Origin: an uncultured Clostridia bacterium
GTDB taxonomy: Bacteria; Bacillota; Clostridia; Christensenellales; UBA1242
DNA: 64,000 nt
Direction of reading: 5' to 3'
Assembly: GCA_947588355.1 (NCBI GenBank)
Contig: CANPYI010000001.1
Location: 13,771-77,770, forward strand
Shown: positions 8,260-33,740 of the stretch, one piece after another
Numbering within the stretch: the stretch's first letter is position 1
Layout: each line of letters starts with the position of its first letter
The notes under the pieces: model-generated
The model's input: only the letters and a program-made list of their open reading frames with translations
Databases searched by the model: none
What the model was told of the DNA's origin: nothing
Position numbers and translations under genes: made by a program

Positions 8260-8299
8260 GTTTTTGTGTATTTGTTTTTGAATTGGCAATAATTGCCTT

Positions 8300-12313: not shown

Positions 12314-12841
12314 ATGAAAAACGATTATGTTTGGGCGAGAACTGTTTTGACTGTTTACAGATATTTGGAGCGTATTGCAGGGGCTATTGACAAAATTGTT
12401 TTGCAGAGTGCGTTGTCCTCTGCATATGTTTCAAGTGAAAACTTTTATCAAAATAATGTTTACACTGTGTCGCAAAAACTGATTGACCTTGGTCAGAGAA
12501 AAATTACTTTGATAAACCTTAAACTTTTGATTGAAGATGCCTTGAAATTTGTCTCTGAAAAAGATGCTGAAATTTTGGTTGAAAAATTTTTTGATGGTGT
12601 CAAAAGCAAGGATATAGCACAAAATCATAACATAAGCATGCGCACGGTTTTCAGAAGAATCGATGCGGCAGTCAAAAGTTTTTCAAATGTGCTTTGTATG
12701 AAAGGCTATGGCAACATTGCTTTACAAAAAATGCTTAAGGACGAAAATTGGATTTTGTGCGTGTTTGAAAGATTTTGCACAAAGCCTCAAGAAGAATTTT
12801 CTTTTTCGCAAATTTTTTTGAAAAAAGCCGTTTCTATGTGA
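12314..12841 (+). CDS. Sigma-70 region-4-like HTH protein (phage late-activator-like)
   Basis: LSEKDAEILVEKFFDGVKSKDIAQNHNISMRTVFRRIDAAVKSF resembles sigma region 4 and ArpU/RinA-type regulators. No region-2 motif seen. Confidence 0.45.
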   Translation: MKNDYVWARTVLTVYRYLERIAGAIDKIVLQSALSSAYVSSENFYQNNVYTVSQKLIDLGQRKITLINLKLLIEDALKFVSEKDAEILVEKFFDGVKSKDIAQNHNISMRTVFRRIDAAVKSFSNVLCMKGYGNIALQKMLKDENWILCVFERFCTKPQEEFSFSQIFLKKAVSM

Positions 12842-12859
12842 CGGCTTTTGTCCTAACTT

Positions 12860-13681
12860 TTACAGTTCACTCTCGTCAAACTCAAAATAGTCTCCGTGCG
12901 AGATACGTCGTTTTCCTTTTTTTGCATTTTTCTTGCTTTTGTTGGTTTGCATAAGTTTTGTTGGCTTGATGAGAAAATACAATATCAGCAAACTTGGCAC
13001 ACTTATTGCCACTATCAACATCACTTGTGTGCCGGTGGAAAGTTTGCTGAAGTTTTGAGGTTGCGGCGGAATCAAAACATCGTCACTTATGGTTGGCAGA
13101 GTAAGATCTGGATCGGACAAGTCACGCACCACAAAAGGTTTTTCTGAAACATAATTTGTGTAAATATATCCTTCTTGACGCTGTCCATCTACATATGCAC
13201 TGACAAAATACCACGTCGTGACAAGTTTTTGGTCAACTTTCTGCAAGCCGGCACCTTCTTTTTCGCCATAATAGGTCATGACCACATCATTTGTGATTGT
13301 GATGGGTGTGGACTTGTTTGTGGCCGAAGAATACATGTTTTGCGTGTCAAAAACAGTGATTGTGGCGGAAGGAAACTTAATTTGCGGTGTGCCTTCAACA
13401 AGGCTGGCGTCATTACGCTTTACATATCCTTGCAAATCTTTGTATGTGACAACATAATAATCTTGTTTTATATCACTGACGATTACAAAATAGTTGTTTG
13501 GAATTGAAAAAAGACTTTCCGAATCGATCGTTCGATAAAAACTTACACCATTTTCGCCGGTTGCAGACTCAACTCGCGCGTAGTAATTTTGATTTGCTTT
13601 TGCTGACGTTTGATTTGTTGAAAGGCAAGTTGCCATAATCAAAAAGATAACGCCTAAAATAAAAATTCTTTTCGTTTTCAT
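12860..13681 (-). CDS. Secreted, membrane-anchored protein with two SH3b-like repeats
   Basis: Signal peptide, two SH3b-like segments (YYVVTYKDLQGYVKRND; WYFVSAYVDGQRQEGYIYTNYV), C-terminal TM segment and a basic/acidic tail. No catalytic domain seen. Confidence 0.5.
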   Translation of the reverse strand: MKTKRIFILGVIFLIMATCLSTNQTSAKANQNYYARVESATGENGVSFYRTIDSESLFSIPNNYFVIVSDIKQDYYVVTYKDLQGYVKRNDASLVEGTPQIKFPSATITVFDTQNMYSSATNKSTPITITNDVVMTYYGEKEGAGLQKVDQKLVTTWYFVSAYVDGQRQEGYIYTNYVSEKPFVVRDLSDPDLTLPTISDDVLIPPQPQNFSKLSTGTQVMLIVAISVPSLLILYFLIKPTKLMQTNKSKKNAKKGKRRISHGDYFEFDESEL

Positions 13682-13735
13682 GTCACTAGGATAAATTTTA
13701 AATCACCAAAACTGATAAAAGATATTTGTCCGTTT

Positions 13736-13764
13736 TTGACTTTTTTTTATGCATTTTGTATATT
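13736..13764 (+). promoter_or_regulatory. Sigma-A-type promoter in front of terL
   Basis: TTGACT, 17 nt spacer, TATATT. Ends 11 nt before the terL ATG. Confidence 0.5.
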
Positions 13765-13775
13765 GGAGTGTTGAG

Positions 13776-15200
13776 ATGGATTTGAATATAGTAAAAAATA
13801 TTTTGAAACTTGAAAAAGAAATTGATTTACGCTACAACGCAAACAAACTTAATTTTTACAACAAGAAAAAGGTTCACAAAAAACAAATTAGGTTTCATAA
13901 ATGTAAAAAGCGTAATAGATGGGTTTTTGGAGGTAACCGCTCGGGCAAAACGGAGTGCGGCGCTGTGGAAGTTGTTTATCTTGCGTGCGGGCTTCATCCC
14001 TACAAGAAAAACAAAGTGACTGAAGGCTGGGTTGTCTCTTTGTCAAGACAAGTTCAAAGAGATGTGGCACAACGCAAGATTTTGGAATATTTGCCTGCTT
14101 CATATATCGAAGATATCGTTATGGTCAGTGGCGGCAAGGACAACGCGGAAAATGGTGTTATTGATTTTATTTTGGTCAAAAGTGCGGTTGGCGGAACAAG
14201 TAAAATTGGTTTTCGAAGTTGTGACCAAGGTAGAGAAAAATTTCAGGGTGCTTCGCTTGACTATGTTTGGTTTGATGAAGAGCCGCCTTTTGACATCTAT
14301 CTTGAATGCAAAATGAGGGTGCTTGACAGGTGCGGAGAAATTTTTGGAACAATGACTCCACTTAAAGGTCTGACTTGGGTGTACAACACAATCTATCTCA
14401 ACGACAAAAACGACAGTGAAGTTTGGTACGAAACTATGGAGTGGGCGGACAACCCCTTTTTGTCCAAAAAAGAAATTGATGCTTTAACAAGAACTTTGCC
14501 TGCTGAAGAACTTGAAAGCAGACGTTATGGAAAATTCATGCAGAGCGGGGGAATGGTTTATAGCGAATTTGATGAGAATGTGCATGTGATTGAGCCTTTT
14601 GACATTCCCCAGGATTGGCAAGACACAATATCTATCGACCCCGGTCTTCATAATCCGCTTTCTGCACATTTTTATTGCGTAGATTTTGATGGCAATGTGT
14701 ATGTTGTTGCCGAACATTATGCGGCGGGCGAGACTGTTGATTTTCATTCTCAGAAAATTTGGGAAATTGCCAAAAAACTTGATTGGAAAACAGACAACAG
14801 AGGATTTTTGCATGCCATAATTGACAGTGCTGCCAATCAGCGTACTCTTTCAAGCCCGAAAAACGTTGTCGAACTTTTTTATGAGAATAAAATTTTGACC
14901 AATCCAAAAGTTGACAAGGACCTTTTTTCAGGAATTTCAGTGGTGAAATCCTATCTTAAGACTGCTGATGGCCGTTGCAGGCTTTTTATTTTCAAAAATT
15001 GCGTCAATTTGATACGCGAAATCAAAAGTTACTGGTGGGGTGATGGCGACGCGCCAATAAAAAAAGATGATCATTGCTTGGACGAACTAAGATATTATCT
15101 TATGACAAAACCGCTCAGCAAAGAAAAAATCGAAAAAACTGAAATTCAAAAAGATAAAGAAAAAATGGCAAGAAATTTGAAGTATAAAAAATATTTATAA
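13776..15200 (+). CDS. terL: Phage terminase large subunit
   Basis: Walker A GGNRSGKTECGA, Walker B LDYVWFDEEP, coupling motif GTMTP. C-terminal nuclease-like half (IDPG..., DDHCLDELRY). Start set at ATG 13776, which follows GGAG. Confidence 0.8.
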   Translation: MDLNIVKNILKLEKEIDLRYNANKLNFYNKKKVHKKQIRFHKCKKRNRWVFGGNRSGKTECGAVEVVYLACGLHPYKKNKVTEGWVVSLSRQVQRDVAQRKILEYLPASYIEDIVMVSGGKDNAENGVIDFILVKSAVGGTSKIGFRSCDQGREKFQGASLDYVWFDEEPPFDIYLECKMRVLDRCGEIFGTMTPLKGLTWVYNTIYLNDKNDSEVWYETMEWADNPFLSKKEIDALTRTLPAEELESRRYGKFMQSGGMVYSEFDENVHVIEPFDIPQDWQDTISIDPGLHNPLSAHFYCVDFDGNVYVVAEHYAAGETVDFHSQKIWEIAKKLDWKTDNRGFLHAIIDSAANQRTLSSPKNVVELFYENKILTNPKVDKDLFSGISVVKSYLKTADGRCRLFIFKNCVNLIREIKSYWWGDGDAPIKKDDHCLDELRYYLMTKPLSKEKIEKTEIQKDKEKMARNLKYKKYL

Positions 15201-15310
15201 CTTTTATGGGTTAAATTATATTTTATTTTTATTAAAAAAAATTAAATATTTTGTCAATACATTTGGAAAAATAATAGCAGATTTGATAAAATGTCAAAAA
15301 GAGAGGAAAT

Positions 15311-17779
15311 ATGAAGAAAATTCCATTTTTGATTTTGTTTGCATTTTGTCTCACAACTGTTTTGAGTGGAATTTTTTTATGCTCTCCCGTCACTTTTGCC
15401 GTTGATACTCAACAATCGGAAATTATTTCTATTGGCGATGAAAACACCTTTGCAGATTACATAAACGGGGTAAAAACATTTGAAGATGGTGTGACCGTGC
15501 AACTTACAAAAGACCTCGACATGAGAAACATCACTCTTACATCAACTTTGGGCACGGCTGACAAGCCATTTGTCGGCACCTTTGACGGAAAGGGCTACAA
15601 AATCTCAAATTTGGTGATTGATTTGACCGAAAAAGAAGATGCAACTTTGTTTGCAGGTTTGTTTGGCTTTGTAAGCGGAAGTGTTGATGATTCTGGAAGA
15701 TTTGTCAACTCACAAATAAAAAATGTTAAAATTGAAAATATAACATTCAGACTTGCTTCAAATGTCGGTGTTTCTGTGGGTGCATTGGTGGGCCGAGCAG
15801 AACATACTTCTATCACAAATGTTGAGATTTCAAATTCAGATGTTCTTTTACAGCAAAAACAGACCGACGAAAGTTTTGCAAATTATGACTTTGGCAGTGA
15901 CATTGATTTTGGCGGTGTTGCCGGGGTTTTGAAAGACAGCACAATGAACTTTGTCATTTCACGACCAAAATTCAGACAATGGAAATTTGCAAAAAACAAC
16001 AACAGAGTTTCAAATTTCGGTGGGCTTGTTGGCAGAATTTCAAGCAGTCAGATTTCTTTCTGCGTTGTTGAAACGGACTTTGATGCTGACTTTGAGCAAT
16101 CATATGACGGAACAGCAAGTATTGGTGGAATTGTTGGACAAGCAGAACAAAGTGACAGTTGCATTGTTGATATCGCACTCAAAAGCAATTTTATCATTTC
16201 TGGAACAAACACAAATGGCATTGTGAAATCCGGCCTTGTTGCTGGCAGTGTAAGCAATTCTGCACCGGCTCGTGGCAATATCTCTTTTGTGACTTATCAG
16301 TCAAACATAAATAGAATTTTTGGCGATAACAATTACAAATATTCAGATGAAGTTGACTTTGATTTTATAAGAGTTTCCACTCATTCACTTTCTCCTTTGG
16401 AACGGGAAAATGGACAATATCCTTACTTTTCTGAGCAGGCTTGGCATCCGTTGTATGGTGCTTGGGACTTTGATACTGTTTGGTATGTTGATGAACAGAC
16501 GGGAGAAATAAATTTGCAATATTTCAACAACTCTTTGAGTTTGTCTGCTGTGACCAACACCGATTCAAGCACTGAAAGTTTGATTTTCAAGGGCATAGCA
16601 ATCAAAAATAATGGGGCTGAAGTTTCCAGAAACAATTTTAAATACGGCGATGAAGTGAGAATAAGTTTTGATTTCAACACTTTTTCAGAGGACGATAAAA
16701 CTGTTTCTATGAAAGATTTTACAGAGTTTTCAAATCTCAGTCTCACAAAACAAGGCACAACTACAGACGTTGCAAGAATCATAAATACTGAAAAAGGATA
16801 TGTTATCACCGGAAGTGACCAGTATGCTGTGGAAAGTTCTGCTGACGGAAATGGTTTTGTGGTTGTTGTAAAAAGTTTAAATTTGTCAACTTCGGGAAGA
16901 TACACTGCCACTGCACAAAGAAAGGCATTTCTTGGAAGGATAACTTCCCGTTTGTATGATACTGACGGAAATCAGGTTGAAAACGAAACTCCAGCATATG
17001 TATATCATGCTTCATATGGAAGTTCGCAACCACCAACAACAGAAACTCTTTCTTTGCCGGAAATGTACTACAACAGCGAGTACAGGATTCGCTCAACTGT
17101 AAAATCTGGCAGACCATATTCATTCTCGGGGTGGTATATGGTCAATGAGAATGAGGTCACAAAAATACCAGAACAGTATGTTGACAACAATAACAATCTG
17201 ATCTTCACTTTTGGACACGGAATATTCAAATCAAACTTCAACATATTTGCCAGATATGAAGATGACGCATGCAACATAACTTTCATTTCGGACACCGGGG
17301 TCGCAAGAATTCGCTTGAGTGGAAATGAACTTTATCAAACAAACATAACTTCCCCTGTTTCAAAAAAGGAAAATGCATTAAGGCTGGAAATATTCATTCA
17401 TAAAGGTTTTGAATTTGACACAGACAAATTTATTGATGAACTTTTCTATAAATCTGCCGATCCAACCACACCTTTCTGCAGATTGGTTGCAAGCGACACC
17501 TCGCAAGATGAATATGATTTTTATCAGTTTGAAATCAATATGACAATCTTGAATTGGGGCGATTTTGAAAATGCATTCACCGTCAAAATACAAACCAACG
17601 AAAATAAGCAAGTTGACAATTCGTGGATTTGGTGGGTTTTAGGCTCTGTTATTGGAGTGGTAGTTCTGGTGGCAATAATTGTTTTGATTATATGGCTTGT
17701 GAAGCGTAATGGCTTTGGTGGCGGTTATGGCGGCAAAACAAAAGTAAGCAAAAAAAGTTACAAAAATATGTATTATTAA
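15311..17779 (+). CDS. Large surface protein with GLUG-motif region, signal peptide and C-terminal TM anchor
   Basis: Signal peptide. PFVGTFDGKGYKISNL...FAGLFGFVSG and repeated GGLVG/GGIVG segments typical of GLUG repeats. C-terminal WIWWVLGSVIGVVVLVAIIVLIIWLVKR. Confidence 0.55.
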   Translation: MKKIPFLILFAFCLTTVLSGIFLCSPVTFAVDTQQSEIISIGDENTFADYINGVKTFEDGVTVQLTKDLDMRNITLTSTLGTADKPFVGTFDGKGYKISNLVIDLTEKEDATLFAGLFGFVSGSVDDSGRFVNSQIKNVKIENITFRLASNVGVSVGALVGRAEHTSITNVEISNSDVLLQQKQTDESFANYDFGSDIDFGGVAGVLKDSTMNFVISRPKFRQWKFAKNNNRVSNFGGLVGRISSSQISFCVVETDFDADFEQSYDGTASIGGIVGQAEQSDSCIVDIALKSNFIISGTNTNGIVKSGLVAGSVSNSAPARGNISFVTYQSNINRIFGDNNYKYSDEVDFDFIRVSTHSLSPLERENGQYPYFSEQAWHPLYGAWDFDTVWYVDEQTGEINLQYFNNSLSLSAVTNTDSSTESLIFKGIAIKNNGAEVSRNNFKYGDEVRISFDFNTFSEDDKTVSMKDFTEFSNLSLTKQGTTTDVARIINTEKGYVITGSDQYAVESSADGNGFVVVVKSLNLSTSGRYTATAQRKAFLGRITSRLYDTDGNQVENETPAYVYHASYGSSQPPTTETLSLPEMYYNSEYRIRSTVKSGRPYSFSGWYMVNENEVTKIPEQYVDNNNNLIFTFGHGIFKSNFNIFARYEDDACNITFISDTGVARIRLSGNELYQTNITSPVSKKENALRLEIFIHKGFEFDTDKFIDELFYKSADPTTPFCRLVASDTSQDEYDFYQFEINMTILNWGDFENAFTVKIQTNENKQVDNSWIWWVLGSVIGVVVLVAIIVLIIWLVKRNGFGGGYGGKTKVSKKSYKNMYY

Positions 17780-17808
17780 AAAAAACGAAGGCGCTCTTCG
17801 TTTTTTTT
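17778..17808. terminator. Bidirectional terminator between convergent genes
   Basis: AAAAAAACGAAG-gcgct-CTTCGTTTTTTTT. Confidence 0.7.
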
Positions 17809-18394
17809 ATAACATTTGATTTTCAAGATATTTTTGACCTAGTTTGCGTGCTAGGTTGACGCTTTTTTGATGTGCATCGTCTATTTGATTGGTTCCGTCT
17901 GTGCGCGTGTTTTCGAAATGAAGACAAAAATGACCATTTGTTGCTGTGTTGCCTGTGCAATATCCGTGCGGATACAAAACTAGGCTCGCGGGTGCATACG
18001 CCGTTTCGCTGAGTTTCACAAGCACTGGTCGGCGGTCCCATGAAAAATCTCTTATTTTTTTTATGATTATGCTATTTTCTTTGTCGGAGGGCTCTACGTC
18101 AATATGATTTTTTCCTCCCGTACGCATTACAAAGAATGCTCGCTCACTTTCAAAATCAAAAATTTCAAATTTTGTTCCTATTGGCAAAAGTAAATTTATT
18201 TGTGCAAAAGATAAGTCTGTTATTTTTGGCCTGCTTGCTTCACTTTGCGTAAGTTCCGTCTCGTGAAAGTTGTTTATCAAAAACGCTTGCTCGTTTGAGA
18301 TGTTGGTGTGCCGTGAAAAAATAGGATATGGAAGTATGCTTGAAAAAACTGCCACAGTCAACAAAAATACAAACAAATAAAATGTTTTTTGCAT
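17807..18394 (-). CDS. Hypothetical secreted protein (195 aa)
   Basis: N-terminal signal/TM segment. Conserved-looking YPHGYCTGNTATNGHFCLHF near the C terminus. Family not recognised. Confidence 0.5.
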   Translation of the reverse strand: MQKTFYLFVFLLTVAVFSSILPYPIFSRHTNISNEQAFLINNFHETELTQSEASRPKITDLSFAQINLLLPIGTKFEIFDFESERAFFVMRTGGKNHIDVEPSDKENSIIIKKIRDFSWDRRPVLVKLSETAYAPASLVLYPHGYCTGNTATNGHFCLHFENTRTDGTNQIDDAHQKSVNLARKLGQKYLENQML

Positions 18395-18471
18395 GAAAAT
18401 AGTTTGTTTCGCAAAATTATGTTTAATTCAATTTTCAGCATGAAAAATTTTTAATTTTAATATATATTTTT

Positions 18472-19443
18472 ATGGCAAAAATATTTGTTGTAGTTTTTTT
18501 GATTTTTGGCACTGTTGTCGGCTCAGGTTTTTCTAGTGGCAAAGAAATTATGGTGTTTTTCAGCCGTTTTGGTGAATTGTCATATCTTTTTATTGTGCTT
18601 GCATGTGTTTTGTTTTTTGGTCTTTTCAGTTTTTTTCTTCTTTGCGGAAAAAAACTTTTGTATGTTCTTCAAAAATATAAATTTTTAAATCTTGTTAATG
18701 CTTTTATTTGTATTGTTTTTTGTGCATCAATGTTTGCAGGGATAAAAAATCTGTTTTCCTATTTTCCTGCGTGGGGATATTTTATTGCAGTTACAATTCT
18801 TATTTTATGCACTATTTTTGTCACTTTGAGAGGAATTAAAGGACTTGAAAAAGTCAATTTTTTGCTTATGCCAATCACAAGTGTTTTGTTTTTGTTTGTA
18901 CTTTTTTTTGCAGTCACAAAAACTGCGACTGTGCCTTTGAATACTTCAAACGAATTGGCAGGTATTTTGTACAGCCCTCTTTATGTGGCACTGAACACTT
19001 GTATGAGCGGTATCGTCATTTGCAAAGCGGGTGACAGTTTGACAAAAAAGCAATGCTTATTTGCCAGCGCATTTGCCTCGTGCATGATTGGTGTTTTTTT
19101 GATTTTAGGAAATTTTGTTCTGCAAAAAAACGGCACTTCAATAATTAGTGAAATGCCGTTTTTGACTATTTCTGCTGAAAACAAATTTATGTTTAATCTG
19201 TCATATCTTGTCATTTTGATAGGTTGCTTTACAACCTTAATTTCGGAGTGTTTTACACTGAAAACTTCGATTGAACCTTTGACGAAAAACAACAAACTTT
19301 CCACACTTTTGGCTGTATTTGTGCCTTTTGCCATCAGCAGTTTAGGATTTTCTTGCATTGTTTCCTTTTTGTATCCTATTTGCAGTGTTTTAGGAATTTT
19401 TGTGCTTGTTTTGATGATTTTAAGTCAAGTGGCAAAAACATGA
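18472..19443 (+). CDS. YkvI-like multi-pass membrane protein (putative transporter)
   Basis: N-terminal IFGTVVGSGFSSGKEI resembles the YkvI-family GAGFASGQEI motif. About 9-10 predicted TM segments. Confidence 0.55.
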   Translation: MAKIFVVVFLIFGTVVGSGFSSGKEIMVFFSRFGELSYLFIVLACVLFFGLFSFFLLCGKKLLYVLQKYKFLNLVNAFICIVFCASMFAGIKNLFSYFPAWGYFIAVTILILCTIFVTLRGIKGLEKVNFLLMPITSVLFLFVLFFAVTKTATVPLNTSNELAGILYSPLYVALNTCMSGIVICKAGDSLTKKQCLFASAFASCMIGVFLILGNFVLQKNGTSIISEMPFLTISAENKFMFNLSYLVILIGCFTTLISECFTLKTSIEPLTKNNKLSTLLAVFVPFAISSLGFSCIVSFLYPICSVLGIFVLVLMILSQVAKT

Positions 19444-20274
19444 TTATGCTTTTGTTTTTGGATTGTATTTCTTTTCCAACAAACTGACAAAATAGTACAT
19501 TGCAAACGCCAAAATGCACAAAATCACTGTCGCTGCCATAACCAAATCTATTTTGAATATTTGCCCGCCATATACAATCAAGTAGCCAAGCCCGGCTTTG
19601 CTTGTCAAATATTCTCCCATAATGCTTCCGACCCAACTCATGCCAACGTTTATCTTTAAAACGGAAACAAATTCTGGCATTGCGCTTGGCAAAACAAGTT
19701 TGAAAAATATTTGGAATTTGTTGGCGTTCATGGATTTTAGTAGCAAAATTTTGCCTTCTTCGACCGACAAAAAAGCCGAGAGCATGCTCATTGTAGTTAT
19801 GACTATGCAAATAAGAACGCACATCATGATTATGGCATTTGTGCCTGCACCGACCCACAAAATTATTATTGGCCCGAGTGCGATTTTAGGTAATGAATTC
19901 AGCACAACGATATAAGGCTCAAACACTTTTCTAACTTTTTCATTCCACCACAAAAGCACGGCAATAATGTATCCAAGAACTGTGGCAATAGCAAAGCCTA
20001 TCAATGTTTCATACAAAGTTACCCAAGTGTGATTTAAAAGTGTTCCGTCTTTTGCAAGAGCGACAATTTGTGACATTATTCGTGATGGAGAACTGATAAA
20101 GAAGGGGTCAATTACGTTGGTTGCGGTCAAAAGTTCCCATAGACCGATAAAGGCGACCAGCAAAAATATTCGGAAAAAAATAATTAAAAATTTGTCACGT
20201 CTTAATCTTTTTACATATGCAATATGAGATTTTGAAAAAGTTTTTTCGGTAATTTTATTTTTCTTTGGTTTCAT
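19444..20274 (-). CDS. ABC transporter permease (NitT/TauT-like)
   Basis: Six-TM BPD-type permease with an EAA-like loop (SMLSAFLSVEEGKILLLKSMNA). Start set at MKPKKNK, overlapping the ATPase stop. Confidence 0.75.
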   Translation of the reverse strand: MKPKKNKITEKTFSKSHIAYVKRLRRDKFLIIFFRIFLLVAFIGLWELLTATNVIDPFFISSPSRIMSQIVALAKDGTLLNHTWVTLYETLIGFAIATVLGYIIAVLLWWNEKVRKVFEPYIVVLNSLPKIALGPIIILWVGAGTNAIIMMCVLICIVITTMSMLSAFLSVEEGKILLLKSMNANKFQIFFKLVLPSAMPEFVSVLKINVGMSWVGSIMGEYLTSKAGLGYLIVYGGQIFKIDLVMAATVILCILAFAMYYFVSLLEKKYNPKTKA

Positions 20275-21028: not shown

Positions 21029-21100
21029 AGTAAGTCCTCTTACAATAACATCTTATTTTTGCTGACAATTTTTGTTAATTTAAATTTTTGACACAAAACC

Positions 21101-21129
21101 TTGCATAGCATTTTTTCTTGTTTTATCAT
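21101..21129 (+). promoter_or_regulatory. Possible promoter of the terS-like/portal operon
   Basis: TTGCAT, 17 nt spacer, TATCAT. Lies about 30 nt upstream of the TTG start at 21160. Confidence 0.35.
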
Positions 21130-21159
21130 TTCGCAAAGTCAATCAAAAGGAGTTTAAAG

Positions 21160-21450
21160 TTGGACGAACAAGAAATTTTGCATGCTCTTGAAAAGAAAGC
21201 GCTTGGATTTTCTTTTGACGAAGTCGTGGAGGAGTACTGCCAAGACGAAAATGGCAAGCCTGTGCTTTCAAAACGCAAAATTACAAAAAAAATCAATCCT
21301 CCAGATATTTCGGCTCTCAAATTTTTGCTTGAAAGAGAGCATTTGTCTGAGGACATGATTTCAAACATGTCTGACAAACAACTTTTGGAGGAGAAAAAAA
21401 GACTTTTAAAAATTTTAAAGGAGAATGAAGATGAAAATGGAAATTTGTAA
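21160..21450 (+). CDS. Terminase-small-subunit-like / HTH protein
   Basis: TTG start 7 nt after AAAGGAG. LEKKALGFSFDEVVEEY...KKINPPDISALKFLLERE resembles small terminase N-terminal regions. Sits directly upstream of the portal gene. Weak call. Confidence 0.35.
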   Translation: MDEQEILHALEKKALGFSFDEVVEEYCQDENGKPVLSKRKITKKINPPDISALKFLLEREHLSEDMISNMSDKQLLEEKKRLLKILKENEDENGNL

Positions 21451-21640
21451 ACATGACTTAAAGTGCAATTTCTATGGATGCAAAAATCTGGCAAAATATT
21501 CGTTTTCAATGAATGGCTTTCTTAAAAAAGACCTAGTGTTTTGTGAAGATTGCATGAAAGAAATGTACACACTTTTTGGTCAAGTGCTAGTTCCGAAACC
21601 AGTGGAATCGGTGTTTAAAGGGAGAAAGAAAAAAGAATGA
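21431..21640 (+). CDS. Small Cys-rich protein (about 69 aa)
   Basis: CKHDLKCNFYGC...FCEDC pattern suggests zinc binding. ATG lies 7 nt after AAGGAG. Overlaps both neighbouring genes. Confidence 0.4.
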   Translation: MKMEICKHDLKCNFYGCKNLAKYSFSMNGFLKKDLVFCEDCMKEMYTLFGQVLVPKPVESVFKGRKKKE

Positions 21641-23496
21641 AAAAAGAAAATAATCTTGTAAAAGAAACTTTGGAAGATTTTGAAAATCGTGTGCGCCAAA
21701 GAAAAAGTTTTGACAGCCAGTGGCAACTTAATATGAATTTTTATATGGGAAATCAGTTTGTTGAACTTGGCTACGGCGGAGCAGTCCGAGAACTTGACAA
21801 ACAATATTTCTGGCAAGAAAGAGAAGTTTTTAATCATATCGCGCCAATCATTGATGTCAGACTTTCAAAACTTTCCAAGATAAAACCTAAAATGCACATC
21901 ATGCCAGCCACAGATGACGAACATGATGTGTACACAGCAAAGGTTGGAAAGAAAATCCTTGATGTTGTTGAAAGCAAAATGAATATGCGAGCAAAGATAA
22001 ATCAAGCGACAAAATGGAGCGAAATTTGTGGCACAAGTTTTTACAAAATTTCTTGGAATTCAAACTTGGGTCAGGTGGTCGCACTCGAAGAAAATGGCAA
22101 GAAAATAATGTCGGGCGATGTGGAAGTTTCTGTTTGCAGTCCTTTTGAAATTTATCCAGATTCGTCAACACATGAAACTTTGGAGGATTGTCAAAGCATA
22201 ATTCATGCACGAGTTTATTCCGCTTCTCAGGTCAAACAAATGTATGGTGTTGACCTTCAAGGCAAGGATATCAATGTGTATTCTTTGGACGGAGTCTCTT
22301 CCTCTCTTGGCGGACTTGGTTACAACGGTCATGCTACGAAGTTGATCGAAACAACAAAACACGACAGCGTGCTTGTGCTTGAAAAATACGTAAAGCCATA
22401 TGATGAATTTCCAAATGGAAGACTTATTATAATTGCCGGCGACAAACTTGTTTTTGACGGAGAAATGCCTTATATAAACGGTGTTGATGGGAAAAGAGAA
22501 TTTCCATTTGTTCGTCAAATTTGCAATGAGGAAGTTGGAAACTTTTGGGGCGTTTCAATGATCACTCGTCTGATACCAATTCAGCGTGCATTCAATGCCG
22601 TGAAAAACAGAAAGCATGAGTACCTCAACAGGCTTACACTTGGCGTTCTTTCTGTCGAGGACGGAAGCGTGGATATTGACAATTTGGAAGAAGAAGGTTT
22701 GGCACCTGGCAAAATTTTAGTTTACCGTCAAGGCTCAAATGCACCAAAATTTTTGGGCGGCGAGCAAGTGCCTTCTGATTTTGACAAAGAAGAAGAACGC
22801 CTTTTGGACGAATTCCAAAAACTTTCTGGCACAAGTGAAGTTGGAAACATGGACAACATCTCCAATTCGATTTCGGGTGTGGCACTTGAACTTTTGATAG
22901 ATGAAAACGAAACACGTTTGATTTTCACGACCGACAGTATAAAATCTGCAATCAAAACTGTTGCAAAACATATCCTCAGACTTTACAAGCAGTTTGCCAG
23001 CCTTCCAAGACTTTTGAGAGTGGCTGGTGAAGATGGCGGCCTGGAGATAATGTACTTTAAAGACAGTGACATAACAAGCGATGATGTGCGATTTGACACC
23101 GACAATGACAACAACGACACAATTTCTCAAAGAAGAGATATGATTTTCAAACTATTGGACAAAGGATTGCTTTGCGATGAAAATGGACAAATTTCCAGTG
23201 CCATGAAAACAAAGATTTTGGAAAATATTGGCTTTGGTGTTTGGGATAATTCGATTGACCTTAACGAACTGCATATCAAAAATGCAGACCTTGAAAATAC
23301 ATGGCTATGTGAGGGGCAAAGTGTGAATGTGAAAGAAATAGATGATGACAATTTGCACATAAATCAACACACAGCCTTTATGCTTAAAAATTTGTATTCA
23401 AATAGTGATATTGACAAGAAAATTGAAAGTAAATTTTTGGAACATTTGAAACAACACAAACAATCTTATGAAAGAAAACACAACCAAAACGTTTAA
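21637..23496 (+). CDS. Phage portal protein
   Basis: 619 aa. N-terminal SFDSQWQLNMNFYMGNQ is typical of portal proteins. Size and position (before scaffold and capsid) fit. ATGA overlap with the upstream ORF. Confidence 0.7.
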   Translation: MKKENNLVKETLEDFENRVRQRKSFDSQWQLNMNFYMGNQFVELGYGGAVRELDKQYFWQEREVFNHIAPIIDVRLSKLSKIKPKMHIMPATDDEHDVYTAKVGKKILDVVESKMNMRAKINQATKWSEICGTSFYKISWNSNLGQVVALEENGKKIMSGDVEVSVCSPFEIYPDSSTHETLEDCQSIIHARVYSASQVKQMYGVDLQGKDINVYSLDGVSSSLGGLGYNGHATKLIETTKHDSVLVLEKYVKPYDEFPNGRLIIIAGDKLVFDGEMPYINGVDGKREFPFVRQICNEEVGNFWGVSMITRLIPIQRAFNAVKNRKHEYLNRLTLGVLSVEDGSVDIDNLEEEGLAPGKILVYRQGSNAPKFLGGEQVPSDFDKEEERLLDEFQKLSGTSEVGNMDNISNSISGVALELLIDENETRLIFTTDSIKSAIKTVAKHILRLYKQFASLPRLLRVAGEDGGLEIMYFKDSDITSDDVRFDTDNDNNDTISQRRDMIFKLLDKGLLCDENGQISSAMKTKILENIGFGVWDNSIDLNELHIKNADLENTWLCEGQSVNVKEIDDDNLHINQHTAFMLKNLYSNSDIDKKIESKFLEHLKQHKQSYERKHNQNV

Positions 23497-23507
23497 TGGA
23501 GGATAAA

Positions 23508-24131
23508 ATGGACGAAGAAAAATTATTTGAGGAACAACCACAAAACATCCAACCTTCCGTCGAAGAAGATGATTTGGGCTCCTCTTGTGAAGGGCAAGAA
23601 GATATTGAGGCTGAAAAAGTTGAAGCAGAAGGAGGCGTAACCCTTGGAAAATTTAAAAATACAGAAGAACTTTTGAAGGCCTACAACAATCTTCAAGCAC
23701 AATTCACAAAAAAAAGTCAAAAACTTGCCGAAGTTATGAAAGATAAAACGCCAGAGCCTGCCACATCTGAACAGGTTTTAAAAACGTTCCTTTCAAACAA
23801 TCAGGAAGCGGTTTTGTACGCCGACGAACTGAAATCCCGTGTAGGCGATTCGCAAAGTTGTGACGAAGGCGATTTCAGGCGTGCTTGGGCGGATATATTG
23901 TATGAAAAACTGTCCTCAAAGCATAAAGCCGAAGAACCTATTGTACAAAATTTTGTTAAAGATGACGAAATACAAGAAATGGTCATCAAAAACTACGTAA
24001 AACAACTGTCAGAGCAAAAAACACCTGTGGTTATATCTTCAAATTCTGGCGAAAGGTTGACAAGAACTGCCACAGCAAAGCCTGATTCTTTTGAAGACGC
24101 CAAACGTGTTGTGCTTGATATGTTTTCTTAA
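23508..24131 (+). CDS. Capsid scaffolding-like protein
   Basis: Acidic N terminus, then GKFKNTEELLKAYNNLQAQFTKKSQ, a common scaffold motif in Firmicutes phages. Start chosen 5 nt after GGAGG. Confidence 0.55.
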   Translation: MDEEKLFEEQPQNIQPSVEEDDLGSSCEGQEDIEAEKVEAEGGVTLGKFKNTEELLKAYNNLQAQFTKKSQKLAEVMKDKTPEPATSEQVLKTFLSNNQEAVLYADELKSRVGDSQSCDEGDFRRAWADILYEKLSSKHKAEEPIVQNFVKDDEIQEMVIKNYVKQLSEQKTPVVISSNSGERLTRTATAKPDSFEDAKRVVLDMFS

Positions 24132-24146
24132 AAAGGAGAATGAAAT

Positions 24147-25316
24147 ATGATTACATTACAAAGTGCAGAAAATGTGCTTAAAGACGTTTATCTTGGTGTT
24201 ATTGCTGACCAAATAAACACAAAAACAAACCCTTTGTTTTCTCGTATAAAAAGAAGTACAAGAAACATTGTTGGAAAGGAAGTTCGAGTTGTTGCACCTA
24301 TCGGAATCAACGGTGGCATTATGGCAGCAGCAGAAGATTCAGAACTTCCAACAGGAGTGGACACGCCATACATTTCGTTTGTTGCTCCACTTAAAAACCT
24401 TTATGGAAGATTTGAGATCAGTGACAAAGCAGTTCGCTGTTCTTCAAGTGACGTAAATTCATTTGTTAATCTTTTGCAAGATGGAATGGACAGTCTTCTT
24501 AAAGCAAGTATTTTCAATCTTTCAAGAATGATTTACGGTGATGGAAGCGGGCTTTTGACAAAAGTTACAGATGCAGAAGGCTTTAAAATTGACAATGCCG
24601 AAGCGGTTGCTCCGGGCATGTATGTTGATGTTTATGCAACAGGAACAGAATCTCCAAAAGCCAATGGCACAAAAGTGTATGTTGAAGCAGTTGACAAAGT
24701 CAACAAAACAATAAAGCTGACCGGAAGTGTTGAACTTGCAAAGGATGATGAAATTTATGTTCATGGTTCAAGAAAAAATGACATTATTGGTCTTAAAGGC
24801 ATTGTAAACAACAGCACTCTGTACGGAGTTGATAGACAGTCAAAACCTATTATGAACGCAACAAAGTACACTGCAAGTGGCACAGATGCATTTGATGAAG
24901 ATTATGTTCAAAAAATCATTGACGATTTGGAAATGAACGGAACAACTGTCAACTTTATAAACTGCTCTTATGCACTTAAAAGAGTTTATCAAAAATATTT
25001 GACATTGTACAACAAAAACATTGCTTACACAACTCTTGAAGATGGCATGAAAGTTCTTACACACTTTGGAACTCCAATTGTTCCTACAAACCATGTTGCA
25101 GATGGCGAAGCATATTTCCTTAATACTGATGATTTCACTTTCTTTGAACTTGGTGATTGGAAATGGCTTGAAGACGAGAGTGGCAGAATCTTGAAACAAC
25201 ATGCAAGCAAACCTGCCTACAGTGCAACACTTGTGAAATACACTGAACTTCTTTGTCAAAAACCATCTGGCGTTGGCTTTGTAAGCGGGCTTTCAACAAC
25301 AGTTAAAGAGGCATAA
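24147..25316 (+). CDS. Putative major capsid protein
   Basis: 389 aa, directly after the scaffold-like ORF, with a strong RBS (AAGGAG). N terminus resembles podovirus-type capsid proteins. The call is partly positional. Confidence 0.6.
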   Translation: MITLQSAENVLKDVYLGVIADQINTKTNPLFSRIKRSTRNIVGKEVRVVAPIGINGGIMAAAEDSELPTGVDTPYISFVAPLKNLYGRFEISDKAVRCSSSDVNSFVNLLQDGMDSLLKASIFNLSRMIYGDGSGLLTKVTDAEGFKIDNAEAVAPGMYVDVYATGTESPKANGTKVYVEAVDKVNKTIKLTGSVELAKDDEIYVHGSRKNDIIGLKGIVNNSTLYGVDRQSKPIMNATKYTASGTDAFDEDYVQKIIDDLEMNGTTVNFINCSYALKRVYQKYLTLYNKNIAYTTLEDGMKVLTHFGTPIVPTNHVADGEAYFLNTDDFTFFELGDWKWLEDESGRILKQHASKPAYSATLVKYTELLCQKPSGVGFVSGLSTTVKEA

Positions 25317-25320
25317 ATAT

Positions 25321-25641
25321 ATGAAACAGTCATTTGAGATCGAAAGCGATTGTCTGGATATCGTAGGTCGTATAAAAGCAATAGACAAAGATTATTTTGT
25401 TGTTTTTGACTTGCCAACAAAAATGTTTCAACTTCACAATCACGGACAAGGAAGGTGTACATACTGTCTTACTTTTCCGTTTGATTGCTTGGACGAGCGT
25501 GCAGTGGACTTTACTTTGAAAACTCGTGTGCAAAACAGTGATGCTCTTTTTGAAGAGATGGAAGCCGAAAATAAACGCTTGCAGCTGGCAAAAGCAAAAG
25601 AGATTTTGAATGACTTCAAGGAGAAACTTTATGACAGTTAA
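25321..25641 (+). CDS. Hypothetical protein (106 aa)
   Basis: Tightly packed after the capsid-sized gene. No motif recognised. Confidence 0.5.
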   Translation: MKQSFEIESDCLDIVGRIKAIDKDYFVVFDLPTKMFQLHNHGQGRCTYCLTFPFDCLDERAVDFTLKTRVQNSDALFEEMEAENKRLQLAKAKEILNDFKEKLYDS

Positions 25642-26188
25642 GGAAATTTTAAGTTTGGTTTGTGAATTTGTGGGTGAAAGGGAAATTGCAGAAAAATTTT
25701 CTACCGAGGGAGAACTTACGACTGCTGAAAAAGCAAAGGTTCAACTTATGACGCGGTGTTTCAATTTGGTCAATCAAGAGATTGCAAGTGATTACTTACC
25801 TTTTTTGATAAAAGAGGAGATTGATGTGCAAGATTCTGTGCTTAATTACTCCAATTTAAAGAAAAAGGTTGTACACATTTATGAGGTCAAAAACAGATTT
25901 GGAATGAATTTGAAATTCAGGTGCTTTCCAAATTATGTGCAAATTTTTGGACATGCAAAATCGATTGTATACAGTTATTTGCCAGAAGAACTTGACCTTG
26001 AGAATGAAGTTGATATGCCTTGCGCACTAAGTGCACGCGTTTATGCCTATGGCATTGCTAGTGAATATCTTTTGATTGACGGACTTTCAGATGATGCGGA
26101 AATTTGGGAAAACCGCTTTAAAGATAGCCTTTTTATGCTTTCAAGAAAACATGGCGAACATGTTTTGCCACGCAGAGGTTGGTTTTGA
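25631..26188 (+). CDS. Hypothetical protein (185 aa), possibly a head-completion or adaptor protein by position
   Basis: ATG lies 7 nt after AAGGAG. Overlaps the upstream stop by 11 nt. No motif recognised. Confidence 0.45.
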   Translation: MTVKEILSLVCEFVGEREIAEKFSTEGELTTAEKAKVQLMTRCFNLVNQEIASDYLPFLIKEEIDVQDSVLNYSNLKKKVVHIYEVKNRFGMNLKFRCFPNYVQIFGHAKSIVYSYLPEELDLENEVDMPCALSARVYAYGIASEYLLIDGLSDDAEIWENRFKDSLFMLSRKHGEHVLPRRGWF

Positions 26189-27678
26189 TTTTTTATAAAA
26201 ACAAAAAAAAGTACAAGCCCGTTGAACAAAAAAATTTGATTTTTTCTGTTTTTGAAAATGGGCTTGTGTCCAACAAAGATGATTCGGTGGCCTCTCCAAC
26301 TCAGTGCAAAACATTCTACAATCTTTCGTTCACAGATGGAGCACTGAAAACGGGACTTGGATTTAAAGATTTTCAAGTGCCGTCTTCGATAGATGACCTT
26401 AAAAACTGCCATAGTTATAATTTTGCAGAATGCATAGATGAAATTGATGGCATTTGGCTGGACAGATTCTTTTCCGATAGCATTGAAGCATATTATTATC
26501 AATTGCTTTTGATGGACTCGAAATTTAATGTCTGGTGTGTGCCTTTGATTGACGATGATGACGGATTTATATTAAAGAAAAGTCAAAGAGTGAAAAGTTT
26601 TCCAACTTATCAGTGTGCTTACAGAATAGATAACAAGGATTGCTGTCTGTTTTTCACGGAGCAGGGCATGATCTTTTTGACAGGATATTCAGAAGGATCA
26701 TATCCTGATGTTCCGCCAATCATCTCTTGTGTTGTGCATTATGACAACTTTTTTGGTGTGACAAACACAAACCGAAACACACTAATTTACACCACAAATT
26801 TAAACTTGAAAGAGTGGTCAGAAAGTGACAGATCTACAATAGAATTTTTGGATAATCGTGGCTCTTTCAATAAATTGGTGGGCTTTAACGATTATGTATA
26901 TTTATTCAGAGAATATGGTATTACAAGAATTTCTTTGTACACTTCTTCAAAAGATTTTGCTTTTACACATCTTTTCACTTCATCTTCAAAAATTTTTGAA
27001 AATTCTGTATGCGTTTGCGACGATCAAATTTTGTTTGTAACGCGTGATGGCCTTTTCAGTTTCAACGGAAATTCTGTCACAAAGGTGGCAAAAAATCTTG
27101 ATAAATTTTTGAAAAAACTTGACAACGCCAATTGCACTTGTGCTTGCCTTGACGGAAAATACTATCTTGCCACATATTGTGATTTTGATGATGGAGAAAA
27201 AATTGGTTGTGAAAATGAACAATGTGTCAACAATGTGCTTTTTGAGATTGACATTCATGATTTCACCTTCAATATGATTCGGGGTGTTGATATAAAAAAA
27301 GTTTTGACAATCGATACACCTTTCATGAACAAACTTTTGGCTTGCTTTAATGGGCAAAACAAGCAGAGGGTGGGCGAACTTGACCATTCTGGCTCTGTTT
27401 TTGAAAGTAAAAATAAAAAAAGTTGGAGTTCTTTTCAAACTGACTTTGGTTTTACCGGAAAGGTGAAGAAAATCAAAGAGATTGTTTTAACAACCTTATA
27501 CGATCTTTCTGTTGAAATAAAAAGTGACATTGAAAGCACTATTTTAAAATTTTCTGGCAGCAAAACTGAACAACGTATGCGATTAAACGTAAAAGGAAAA
27601 GTTTTTCAAATAAATTTCACTACCTCAGAAAGTTGTGATGTAAAAAAGCCGATGATTGTCTTTGATGTTGAAAAATGA
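26185..27678 (+). CDS. Hypothetical protein (about 497 aa), candidate structural or tail protein by position
   Basis: Long ORF with no in-frame ATG near the 5' end. TTG 26185 lies 6 nt after AGAGG and overlaps the upstream TGA. Repetitive beta-rich-looking segments. Confidence 0.45.
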   Translation: MIFYKNKKKYKPVEQKNLIFSVFENGLVSNKDDSVASPTQCKTFYNLSFTDGALKTGLGFKDFQVPSSIDDLKNCHSYNFAECIDEIDGIWLDRFFSDSIEAYYYQLLLMDSKFNVWCVPLIDDDDGFILKKSQRVKSFPTYQCAYRIDNKDCCLFFTEQGMIFLTGYSEGSYPDVPPIISCVVHYDNFFGVTNTNRNTLIYTTNLNLKEWSESDRSTIEFLDNRGSFNKLVGFNDYVYLFREYGITRISLYTSSKDFAFTHLFTSSSKIFENSVCVCDDQILFVTRDGLFSFNGNSVTKVAKNLDKFLKKLDNANCTCACLDGKYYLATYCDFDDGEKIGCENEQCVNNVLFEIDIHDFTFNMIRGVDIKKVLTIDTPFMNKLLACFNGQNKQRVGELDHSGSVFESKNKKSWSSFQTDFGFTGKVKKIKEIVLTTLYDLSVEIKSDIESTILKFSGSKTEQRMRLNVKGKVFQINFTTSESCDVKKPMIVFDVEK

Positions 27679-27777
27679 AAATCAAATTTGTTGATTTGAT
27701 ATGTTTTTGCAAAAAGTTGTCTTATTTGAAAAAGAGTGACTTAAAGGCAATTAAAAAACTTTTTTGTGAGGATTGCG

Positions 27778-27996
27778 ATGGAAATTTGGAATGAAATTGT
27801 CAGCATTGTTGTCAGCAATGGTGTGTTTGCAATTTTGTTTGTTTGGCTGTTTTTGTATATGTTGAAAGACAGCAGAAACAGAGAAACAAAATATCAGCAA
27901 ACAATAGAGCAGTTGACAACTCACTTGCAAACTTTGGAAGAGGTGAAAGATGATTTGACTGAAATCAAAGGTTTGCTTAAAGGGGACGACAAATGA
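27778..27996 (+). CDS. BhlA/UviB-family holin-like peptide
   Basis: MEIWNEIVSIVVSNGVFAILFVWLFLYMLKDSRNRETKY... closely follows the BhlA pattern: one TM segment, a K-S/D-R-E-K segment, then a coiled C terminus. Confidence 0.75.
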   Translation: MEIWNEIVSIVVSNGVFAILFVWLFLYMLKDSRNRETKYQQTIEQLTTHLQTLEEVKDDLTEIKGLLKGDDK

Positions 27997-28250
27997 AAAA
28001 CTTTTTTAAAAAAATTCGTTCGTACAGTTTTTGGGTAAGTCTTTCATCTGCCGTGATTATTCTTTTGAACGCACTTGGAAAGGCCTTTGGGTTTTCGATA
28101 CAAAATCAAGTAGTGGAGGATTGTATCATGGCAGTTGCTGGAGTTTTGGTTGTGCTTGGAATTGTGAGTATGAACAAGAAAGAATCCGACAAAAGCAATC
28201 AAGAAGATGTGCCAAATGAGGAAGAGAAAAAAGACAATCCAAATAAATAA
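27993..28250 (+). CDS. Phage holin (phi-LC3 / Phage_holin_1-like)
   Basis: SYSFWVSLSSAVIILLNALGKAFGF...AVAGVLVVLGIVS gives two TM segments with a charged tail. ATGA overlap with the bhlA-like gene. Confidence 0.65.
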   Translation: MKNFFKKIRSYSFWVSLSSAVIILLNALGKAFGFSIQNQVVEDCIMAVAGVLVVLGIVSMNKKESDKSNQEDVPNEEEKKDNPNK

Positions 28251-28285
28251 AAATACTAAAAAATGCATAAATATACACAATATAA

Positions 28286-28321
28286 TAGAACCGTGAAAAT
28301 TTTTGCGGTTCTATTTTTTTA
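28286..28321 (+). terminator. Rho-independent terminator closing the phage-like operon
   Basis: TAGAACCG-12 nt-CGGTTCTA followed by a T8 run. Confidence 0.7.
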
Positions 28322-33507: not shown

Positions 33508-33514
33508 TTTGCTA

Positions 33515-33740
33515 ACGACAATGACGGAAGAACATGGTTTTGGCTGTTTCACACAGAGAGTTTGGGGTGCTGAAATCCAAATTGAAACGCAAAACGAATT
33601 CGCTTCCAACAGTTGCGATTCTGAAGATTTTTTGTGTAGGAATTGCCGTGATGCTGCGTAAATGTGTCAATGAGGTGCGTTTTGCACGAAGTTAGGTGGT
33701 ATCACGAGTTAAATCGTCCTAATGTTTGGACGATTTTTTA
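33515..33740 (+). promoter_or_regulatory. T-box riboswitch leader (Phe)
   Basis: Stem I AGAGAG...GGTGC. UUC codon at 33599-33601 in GAAUUCG. T-box sequence GTTAGGTGGTATCACGAG (33690-33707). Terminator ATCGTCC-8 nt-GGACGAT followed by T6. Confidence 0.8.

Follow-up and report, generated by a model that had tools for sequence, protein, structure and literature searches.

The window, that is, the whole stretch of DNA analysed here, is a 64-kb segment of contig CANPYI010000001.1 from an uncultured Clostridia bacterium. Between two core genes, rarA (recognised by a Pfam match) and polA (recognised by a Pfam match on its syntenic orthologue), it carries a block of phage-type genes, and this block is the element described below. 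The GC content of the block is that of its flanks, and host genes sit on both sides of it as well as within it. An earlier note on this DNA had listed terminase, portal, scaffold, capsid-sized and holin genes in the interval; all the listed genes were retrieved by hidden Markov model (HMM) scans, at the same coordinates or within a few codons of them. The phage-type part of the block was thereby confirmed, but positions 15311-21028, which the note had included, hold non-phage membrane and ATP-binding cassette (ABC) transport genes. In addition, the gene of a regulator (12314-12841) and that of an SH3/transmembrane (SH3/TM) protein (12860-13681) are part of the element too. The features of the locus are as follows.

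12314..12841, plus strand: sigma-70 region-4-like regulator, 175 aa (Sigma70_r4_2, phrog_36)
12860..13681, minus strand: membrane-anchored extracytoplasmic protein (the SH3/TM protein), 273 aa (sequence features, homologues upstream of terL)
13733..13764, plus strand: promoter-like region before terL, TTGACT-17-TATATT (sequence inspection)
13776..15200, plus strand: terminase large subunit, TerL (PF03237, phrog_2)
15311..21028, no single strand: non-phage insert of five genes (membrane, surface and ABC transport), namely the next five
15311-17779: hypervariable surface protein, 822 aa (signal peptide and C-terminal membrane anchor)
17807-18394, minus strand: secreted His/Asp/Cys-rich protein, 195 aa
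18472-19443: YkvI-like protein with multiple transmembrane segments (multi-TM protein)
19444-20304, minus strand: TauC/SaoP-like ABC permease
20255-21028, minus strand: ABC ATPase
21085..21159, plus strand: head-operon promoter and leader (box, -35, -10 and ribosome-binding site, RBS)
21160..21450, plus strand: short protein resembling the terminase small subunit (TerS-like), 96 aa (partial phrog_309 match)
21431..21640, plus strand: conserved 69-aa protein, in all loci
21637..23496, plus strand: portal, P22 type (PF16510, phrog_156)
23496..24131, plus strand: acidic scaffolding protein (position and composition)
24147..25316, plus strand: major capsid protein (MCP), podovirus type (phrog_14242, NF033394)
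25321..25641, plus strand: conserved 106-aa protein, head completion or connector by position
25631..26188, plus strand: probable head-to-tail adaptor, 185 aa (position, directly before the nozzle)
26185..27678, plus strand: predicted tail nozzle or hub, 499 aa (AlphaFold2 and Foldseek)
27675..27794, plus strand: conserved basic open reading frame (ORF) of about 40 aa, 39 aa in the window, bridging the nozzle and holin genes
27778..27996, plus strand: BhlA-family holin (PF10960)
27993..28250, plus strand: Phage_holin_1 or phi-LC3-type holin (PF04531, phrog_297)
28284..28321, plus strand: intrinsic terminator, a 14-bp stem (28284-28315) followed by a T run

Packaging, head and tail genes

TerL matched PF03237 (7e-16) and phrog_2 (6.5e-29), and contained the motifs GGNRSGKT and DYVWFDEEP. 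It was the best-conserved protein of the set, with 81-85% identity in the close clade of relatives defined below (at least 120 homologues listed), and its Walker A and Walker B ATPase motifs did not vary across the wider family. The match of the TerS-like protein to phrog_309 was weak (1.3e-5) and confined to profile positions 183-244 of 319, in the C-terminal part; a DNA-binding domain was not recognisable in this protein, and a profile search returned no PDB match for it.

The portal matched P22_portal PF16510 (2.7e-23) and phrog_156 (4.7e-38). For the MCP, the scans gave phrog_14242 (4.5e-42) and the NCBIfam model NF033394, capsid_maj_Podo, with 187 bits for a cut-off of 80; NF033394 was the sole NCBIfam match at E<=0.1. 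The acidic scaffold-like ORF between them, which contains the peptide quoted in the earlier note, had no family match in the Pfam, PHROG and NCBIfam scans. The 69-aa protein was found in all loci. Neither it nor the 106-aa protein matched a family in the Pfam and PHROG scans, and a PDB profile search was likewise negative for the 106-aa protein, whose position would suit a head completion or connector protein.

The note had recognised no tape measure, tail tube or sheath, and this was borne out. The product of the 499-aa ORF left there without a function is, on its modelled structure, a podovirus tail nozzle of the P22 gp10 / T7 gp12 class. The AlphaFold2 model, computed with a 46-sequence alignment, had a predicted local distance difference test score (pLDDT) of 89.7 and a predicted TM-score (pTM) of 0.88. 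When it was submitted to Foldseek, the best match was a tail chain of phage Pa223 (9nwi_Y, E=1.6e-20, TM 0.69/0.67), and further matches included 8zkk_O, 8jov_A, T7 gp12 and SU10, with VP1 and GP4 among the phages. Matches in BFVD included proteins annotated 'P22 Gp10', and the sequence profile reached the SU10 tail protein 7z47_G at E=0.013. The nozzle, whose fold is based on a beta-propeller, is encoded past the MCP and behind the putative adaptor gene.

The 185-aa protein is probably the adaptor, as suggested by its position and by a non-significant profile match (E=1.6) to the Pa223 head-to-tail adapter 9nwi_A, a chain of the same PDB entry as 9nwi_Y. The PDB profile search gave no significant match for it, and a single-sequence AlphaFold2 model was unusable (pLDDT 36). 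In pairwise BLASTP, neither the 185-aa nor the 499-aa protein was similar to its positional equivalent among the tail genes of phage Shocker. The element thus specifies a head and a minimal short tail and is not head-only.

Downstream of the nozzle gene, the spacer of about 100 nt that had been described before the holins encodes the 39-aa basic ORF (27675-27794), which overlaps both the stop codon of the nozzle gene and the start codon of the holin gene; an ORF stands at this position in 85 of 87 loci. The first holin matched BhlA PF10960 (1.7e-16), and the second PF04531 (6e-5) and phrog_297 (5.8e-12). Some remoter relatives carry extra genes between nozzle and holins, including one for a DUF7934-type protein of about 300 aa, or genes for a tail protein of about 800 aa (phrog_5302) and a fibre-like protein (phrog_4176). 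Counterparts of these three were found neither in the window nor in the two clades in which the head operon is linked to the ABC genes.

Scans of all ORFs between rarA and polA with Pfam, PHROG and NCBIfam gave no match to integrase, repressor, replication or lysin families, nor to those of tape measure, tube or sheath, and a search for att-like direct repeats returned chance-level matches only. The HMM and repeat searches thus agree with the note, in which integrase, repressor, replication and lysin genes and flanking repeats had likewise not been recognised. A tyrosine recombinase gene (Phage_integrase, 2.7e-35; 46771-47802, minus strand) lies among clpX, rny, comM and topA, 18.5 kb from the holins. 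It is the sole recombinase gene in the window, and its product is probably Xer-type and unrelated to the element.

Regulator, promoters and inserted genes

The 175-aa regulator matched Sigma70_r4_2 (1e-5), the transcriptional regulator family phrog_36 (8e-10) and, weakly, ECF/BotR-type NCBIfam models (ECF, extracytoplasmic function); profile matches to PDB were non-significant. Its gene accompanies terL in relatives, with 58% identity at locus L090 and 45% at locus L101, where the operon is contiguous, and in the window it is preceded by a promoter-like TTGACT-17-TATAAT at 12228. On this basis, the protein is a putative late activator of the element.

The 131-bp interval between the ABC ATPase gene and terS contains, in this order, a TG(G/T/A)CA box, a promoter, a GCAAAGTTGC-like box and an RBS. 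The promoter is of the sigma-A type, TTGAAA-17/18-TATAAT, and lies 5-6 nt past the TG(G/T/A)CA box. This combination of box and promoter was present in 71 of 89 distinct terS upstream regions, compared with 2.8% of random windows. In the window itself, the box is TGACA (21089-21093), the -35 element TTGCAT (21101-21106) and the -10 element TATCAT (21124-21129), and the leader continues with a GCAAAGTC box and the RBS AAAGGAG. The GCAAAGTTGC-like palindromic box, at 21133-21145 in the window, is conserved in relatives between the -10 element and the terS RBS, and could act as an operator or as a leader element.

There are exactly two copies of the string TTTTTGAC-N9-TGCAT in the window, one ahead of terL and the other ahead of terS, and the string was considered as a regulon motif. 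As it showed no conservation in other species, it was dropped in favour of the broader promoter architecture, and the evidence for co-regulation of terL and terS is therefore weak. A reading of the TGGCA box as a sigma-54 promoter was also discarded, because the spacing and the -12 element do not fit. Our working hypothesis is that the 175-aa regulator acts at the promoter sites of terL and terS.

The insert (15311-21028) splits the operon between terL and terS. In two clades, every locus has the multi-TM protein gene and the ABC pair linked to the head operon despite differing outer flanks, with the ABC pair and terS transcribed in divergent directions; the multi-TM and ABC genes are not present in the contiguous relatives. 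No gene for a substrate-binding protein lies near the ABC pair; at L090, one of the NMT1 type adjoins the terL locus. The 822-aa surface protein gene comes next after terL both in the window and at L090. Its product has apparent GLUG-type repeats and is only 28-39% identical between species with MCPs about 75% identical, which marks it as a fast-evolving surface protein; that it might serve as a particle receptor is pure speculation. The secreted 195-aa protein (17807-18394, minus strand) has invariant His, Asp and Cys residues, and its gene is kept upstream of the block in the close clade. It had no family match and no PDB match by profile; a role as a cell-wall metallo-hydrolase would be a guess from the conserved residues.

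Distribution, gene order and selection

Relatives were collected by a genome scan with the MCP as query and one genome per GTDB species. The scan found 495 places that encode a relative, of which 80 were listed. The 80 listed (of up to 495) all belong to metagenome-assembled genomes (MAGs) of uncultured Clostridia from animal and human guts, with one locus per assembly. Among the submitter labels are Candidatus (Ca.) Caccovivens, which GTDB places in Christensenellales, family UBA1242, as well as 'Christensenella sp.' and 'Catabacter sp.'. The MCP homologues form more than 4800 clusters at 90% identity, many of them on contigs of 100-450 kb, and at 50% identity there were 3147 representative clusters with E<=1e-3.

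Every sufficiently flanked locus has the same gene order: multi-TM protein, ABC permease and ATPase (divergent), TerS, 69-aa protein, portal, scaffold, MCP, 106-aa protein, adaptor, nozzle, small ORF, BhlA holin and second holin. The ORFs are nearly all intact in about 80 species-level loci, and their lengths are conserved almost everywhere. In the close clade, the MCP is 69-84% identical to that of the window, and the loci keep the 195-aa gene upstream and a 115-aa gene, polA, ruvX and a DUF1292 gene downstream. This polA-adjacent synteny is still present at L055, where polA identity is only 55%. In the distant clade (MCP 45-49% identical), the outer flanks are different and the block is unchanged, including the ABC genes. 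Between the window and L003, amino-acid identities were 75% for the portal, 74% for the MCP, 71% for PolA and 76% for RuvX.

In the genome that contains L003 and L090, one 449-kb scaffold carries both the terL locus and the head operon, which are oppositely oriented and separated by about 145 kb. With packaging and capsid genes at this distance, self-transmission in a capsid of that class is impossible there. The remoter relatives from IMG/VR (MCP 39-47% identical) have instead a single contiguous operon of about 10.5 kb (e.g. L101), in the order regulator, SH3/TM protein (minus strand), terL, terS, portal and so on to nozzle and holins. Homologues of the SH3/TM protein lie directly upstream of terL at L090, L095, L101 and L107; the 273-aa protein of the window has a signal peptide and a C-terminal transmembrane segment, and its counterpart at L099 gave a weak SH3_3 match. 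One long contig of the contiguous type has host flanks (serA-like, serC-like and RNase J genes), which shows that this copy is chromosomal too, and no complete phage genome was encountered among the IMG/VR relatives that were examined in detail. At L111, a relative of the contiguous type, a serine recombinase ORF (510 aa, Pfam) and a neighbouring 536-aa ORF, together at 3376-6515, lie directly upstream of a truncated terL match; insertion of a mobile element may have disrupted terL there.

A metagenome scan anchored on polA yielded three close relatives with enough upstream sequence. In one of them, L126, the synteny of the 115-aa gene (g115), polA and ruvX is retained, and a lone 16S rRNA gene and a terminator (7915-9435) stand where the window has the ABC genes and the head operon; further upstream are an aquaporin gene, surface-protein genes and spo0A.

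Selection was estimated as the median Nei-Gojobori ratio of nonsynonymous to synonymous divergence (dN/dS) over close genome pairs. The lowest values were those of the 69-aa protein (0.03), the portal (0.04), the MCP (0.05) and TerS (0.05), followed by the nozzle (0.07), the BhlA holin (0.07), the 106-aa protein (0.09) and the adaptor (0.12). The second holin (0.22) and the scaffold (0.26) are conserved and evolve faster. As polA and ruvX both gave 0.05 (and the ABC genes 0.04), the portal and the MCP are on a par with housekeeping genes. Furthermore, protein distances of the portal (r=0.94), the nozzle (0.92) and the MCP (0.85) correlated with the distances of the neighbouring ABC genes (Mantel p=0.001, 67 sequences), a correlation that owes part of its strength to the two-clade structure. 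In many pairs, the synonymous divergence of the MCP and scaffold genes was about half that of the portal, nozzle and ABC genes in the same pairs. This may result from codon bias linked to high expression or from gene conversion in the recent past.

Conservation in place, with intact ORFs under purifying selection, had been put forward in the earlier note as the observation that would decide for a system retained by the host. The outcome favours such a system: about 80 loci have the same order, dN/dS is 0.04-0.07 for portal, MCP, TerS and nozzle, the genes co-diverge with their neighbours, and the position next to polA is kept. The separation of the terL locus from the head operon by about 145 kb in one relative further backs this reading.

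Elsewhere in the window, an Rfam scan detected a T-box leader only at pheS (RF00230, 93.5 bits, 33512-33724, plus strand), upstream of the ORF 33769-34794, identified as pheS by synteny with L003. An unusually long protein of 546 aa with an N-terminal PadR domain is encoded at 43061-44701 on the minus strand.

Known systems and competing explanations

Among deposited phages, those nearest to TerL, to the portal and to the MCP are the same actinophages, at only 24-27% identity (27%, E=2e-45, for TerL and the phage Shocker terminase), and no close free-living phage is on record. That the three proteins have common distant phage relatives indicates one ancestral phage type. The phages Shocker (Microbacterium), Jasmine, Adat and Brad (Arthrobacter) and DS1 (Cellulosimicrobium) have the head-gene order of the element, but they are complete phages of 45-47 kb. 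With P22, Pa223, VP1, GP4, T7 and SU10 the element has in common the P22-type portal and the nozzle fold (TM about 0.6-0.7) at a sequence identity of about 10%, whereas the needle, tailspike or fibre, ejection, replication and lysogeny modules of these phages were not detected in it.

RcGTA, the gene transfer agent (GTA) of Alphaproteobacteria, is inherited vertically across a large clade under purifying selection, with genes at several loci. It has a TerS that lacks a DNA-binding domain and a dedicated activator, GafA, with sigma-like domains, and it cannot package its own full gene set. It is siphovirus-like (with tail tube, tape measure and head protease) and under the control of CtrA and quorum sensing; the element has no sequence relationship to it and is of the podovirus type, with only an adaptor and a nozzle. 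PBSX possesses a sigma-like late activator, Xpf, and small holin genes. Its host, Bacillus, is one of the Bacillota, like that of the element, but its contractile myovirus tail, its Xre repressor, its single cluster of about 28 kb and its tailocin character have no equivalent in the element. PBSX resides in the chromosome, does not replicate and packages host DNA at random into its particle, and it need not transfer DNA (PMC12946183).

GTAs had been thought, in the earlier note, not to be described in Clostridia-like Bacillota. This is outdated, since FpGTA of Faecalibacterium has been published, with a 10.5-kb podovirus-type operon and a second one of 5.5 kb for tail and lysis (Borodovich et al., Nat Commun 2026; PMC12946183). 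Its capsids measure about 40 nm, the packaged DNA is 8.4-8.9 kb, and the evidence includes electron microscopy, proteomics and packaged DNA (PMC12946183). The same study found GTA-like packaging to be the commonest route of bacterial DNA into human-gut virus-like particles, and, for the Christensenellales genera HGM11616 and QANA01, reported packaging of the GTA type with fragments of 4.1 kb and 6.3 kb, to which no gene cluster was assigned (PMC12946183). By literature search, HGM11616 and QANA01 could not be placed relative to the cluster-bearing genomes.

Like FpGTA, the element is an operon of about 10 kb for a podovirus-type head and its packaging, located in the chromosome of strictly anaerobic gut Clostridia. 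Both have a TerS with no obvious DNA-binding domain, a TerL, a portal, an MCP and conserved hypothetical proteins; both have no integration or replication genes, and both have parts at more than one locus. They differ in that the FpGTA MCP is annotated as N4-gp56 family and lies beside a Prp-like protease, whereas that of the element matched NF033394 only, with a scaffold and no protease. The second FpGTA operon encodes a baseplate, a fibre, a receptor-binding protein (RBP), a holin and an endolysin; no such operon is present in the 64-kb window, and the holin genes of the element are attached to the head operon. FpGTA belongs to Oscillospirales and the element to Christensenellales-type hosts, and particles of FpGTA have been seen experimentally whereas the element is known here from its genes. 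The element is thus not the first system of this kind in Clostridia, being preceded by FpGTA, which has another capsid family. Judged by an annotation on one side and an HMM result on the other, it probably represents a lineage apart from FpGTA, independently domesticated.

Taken together, the traits of a GTA found here are chromosomal phage-derived genes, the absence of modules for self-propagation, and vertical conservation under selection, as read from the genomes. We therefore favour, with moderate confidence, the explanation that the element is a podovirus-derived, GTA-like particle system maintained by its host. Dozens of examined species, possibly hundreds, probably use the gene set for themselves, and the export of DNA would be its most likely use.

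Under the GTA-like explanation, an operon of about 10.5 kb would have been fixed in the chromosome of the ancestor of a large group of uncultured gut Clostridia of the Christensenellales type that includes Ca. Caccovivens. Its order would have been sigma-like activator, SH3/TM protein, terL, terS, 69-aa protein, portal, scaffold, MCP, 106-aa protein, adaptor, nozzle, ORF of about 40 aa and two holins, and in the lineage of the window it would later have been split between terL and terS by membrane and ABC-transport genes. The sigma-like protein would switch on terL and the head operon, the latter from its own sigma-A-type promoter with the TGGCA-like box, and procapsids would then be formed from portal, scaffold and MCP. 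TerL and the short TerS, in which no DNA-binding domain is recognisable, would load headfuls of any DNA, i.e. of host DNA. Finally, the portal would be sealed by the adaptor and the nozzle, and the particles would be released by the two holins and a wall hydrolase encoded elsewhere. In this scheme, the regulation, the non-specific packaging, the release and the transfer of DNA are inferences.

Several observations weigh against this explanation. Neither the window nor the sequence within 10 kb in the two ABC-linked clades yielded a needle, tail fibre, RBP or endolysin gene, which makes the delivery of DNA to recipients doubtful. The sole regulator identified is encoded by the element, and low dN/dS by itself is equally typical of the structural genes of active phages. 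The site upstream of polA is without the block at L126 (polA 67% identical), where the block has been lost or lies at another place in the genome. For L058, L081 and L082, of the Ca. Caccovivens faecavium lineage, the nearest relatives of MCP and scaffold are in the distant clade, at about 62%, and those of portal, nozzle, ABC genes and polA in the close clade, a pattern that indicates replacement of an MCP and scaffold cassette by recombination within the operon, and some lateral exchange. Moreover, the loci were ascertained through the MCP, so that the counts do not give the prevalence in a clade, and all the genomes are MAGs or metagenome contigs.

The same conservation and selection would be expected of a functional particle kept for a purpose other than transfer, such as programmed lysis that releases encapsidated or free DNA (for biofilm or nutrients), a phage decoy or a PBSX-like killer, with packaging being incidental. 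Injection into recipients is unsupported, as no fibre, RBP or needle was found, and PBSX is a precedent for a domesticated particle that packages DNA and need not transfer it (PMC12946183). However, a podovirus head with only a nozzle is no obvious killing device, and a TerL that is the best-conserved protein, with invariant ATPase motifs, argues that packaging itself is selected; the exchange of cassettes between lineages is also compatible with gene flow. We consider a role of this type rather unlikely.

A satellite or other mobile island, with small capsids of its own and the functions of a helper phage, appears improbable. Capsid-forming phage-inducible chromosomal islands (PICIs) are likewise small and combine an activator, TerS, TerL, portal, scaffold, MCP and connectors with no tail fibres. 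A 2026 mouse-gut preprint describes a similarly organised 12.7-kb candidate in Butyricicoccaceae in the terms of such capsid-forming satellites, and IMG/VR classes relatives of the element as viral. Yet these islands have integrase and replication genes and att sites, are variable between strains and use helper tails, whereas in the element neither integrase, primase or replicase genes nor att repeats were found, and it brings its own podovirus nozzle and holins. Its fixed chromosomal position and its co-divergence over deep distances, the host genes inserted within the operon and the parts lying about 145 kb apart in one relative also speak against an island.

More improbable still is an unconventional temperate or chronic podophage that is autonomous, with functions for replication and lysogeny that would be unrecognisable or supplied by the host. 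Several small ORFs (69 aa, 106 aa and about 40 aa) are indeed without annotation, and purifying selection is expected of an active phage as well. Against it, about 10 kb of recognisable coding capacity serves almost wholly for structure, packaging or lysis, the block contains host transport genes, and one relative has the loci split. In addition, synteny of the position extends over genomes whose polA identity is 55-75%, even the nearest deposited phages reach only 24-27% identity, and among the IMG/VR relatives examined in detail there was no complete phage genome, one long contig being flanked by host genes. Lastly, an ordinary prophage remnant decaying without function, the other alternative of the earlier note, would account for the many phage modules that are not present, but it can be rejected with near certainty in view of nearly all ORFs being intact in about 80 species-level loci, of dN/dS of 0.03-0.12 for head, packaging and nozzle genes (portal and MCP equalling housekeeping genes), and of the conserved promoter.

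Returning to the GTA-like explanation, a broader proposal, which we hold only tentatively, is that an anciently and independently domesticated podovirus became a family- or order-wide GTA of uncultured Christensenellales of the gut, namely Ca. Caccovivens/UBA1242 and relatives, in up to about 500 species. Its minimal, fibre-less particles might be the source of the orphan 4-6-kb signals of human gut viromes, and the linkage with the ABC genes might reflect nutrient-dependent control of the particles.

So far, a gene cluster has been tied to GTA-type packaging in the gut only in Faecalibacterium. The locus described here is a concrete and widely conserved candidate for the orphan Christensenellales packaging signal, and its marker genes (MCP, portal, TerL and nozzle), together with the conserved promoter, provide direct queries for existing virome, metaproteome and metatranscriptome data. 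If the explanation is true, gut Clostridia would have a second podovirus-type GTA, domesticated independently, which would suggest that gene exchange through domesticated capsids is a general feature of this uncultured part of the microbiome.

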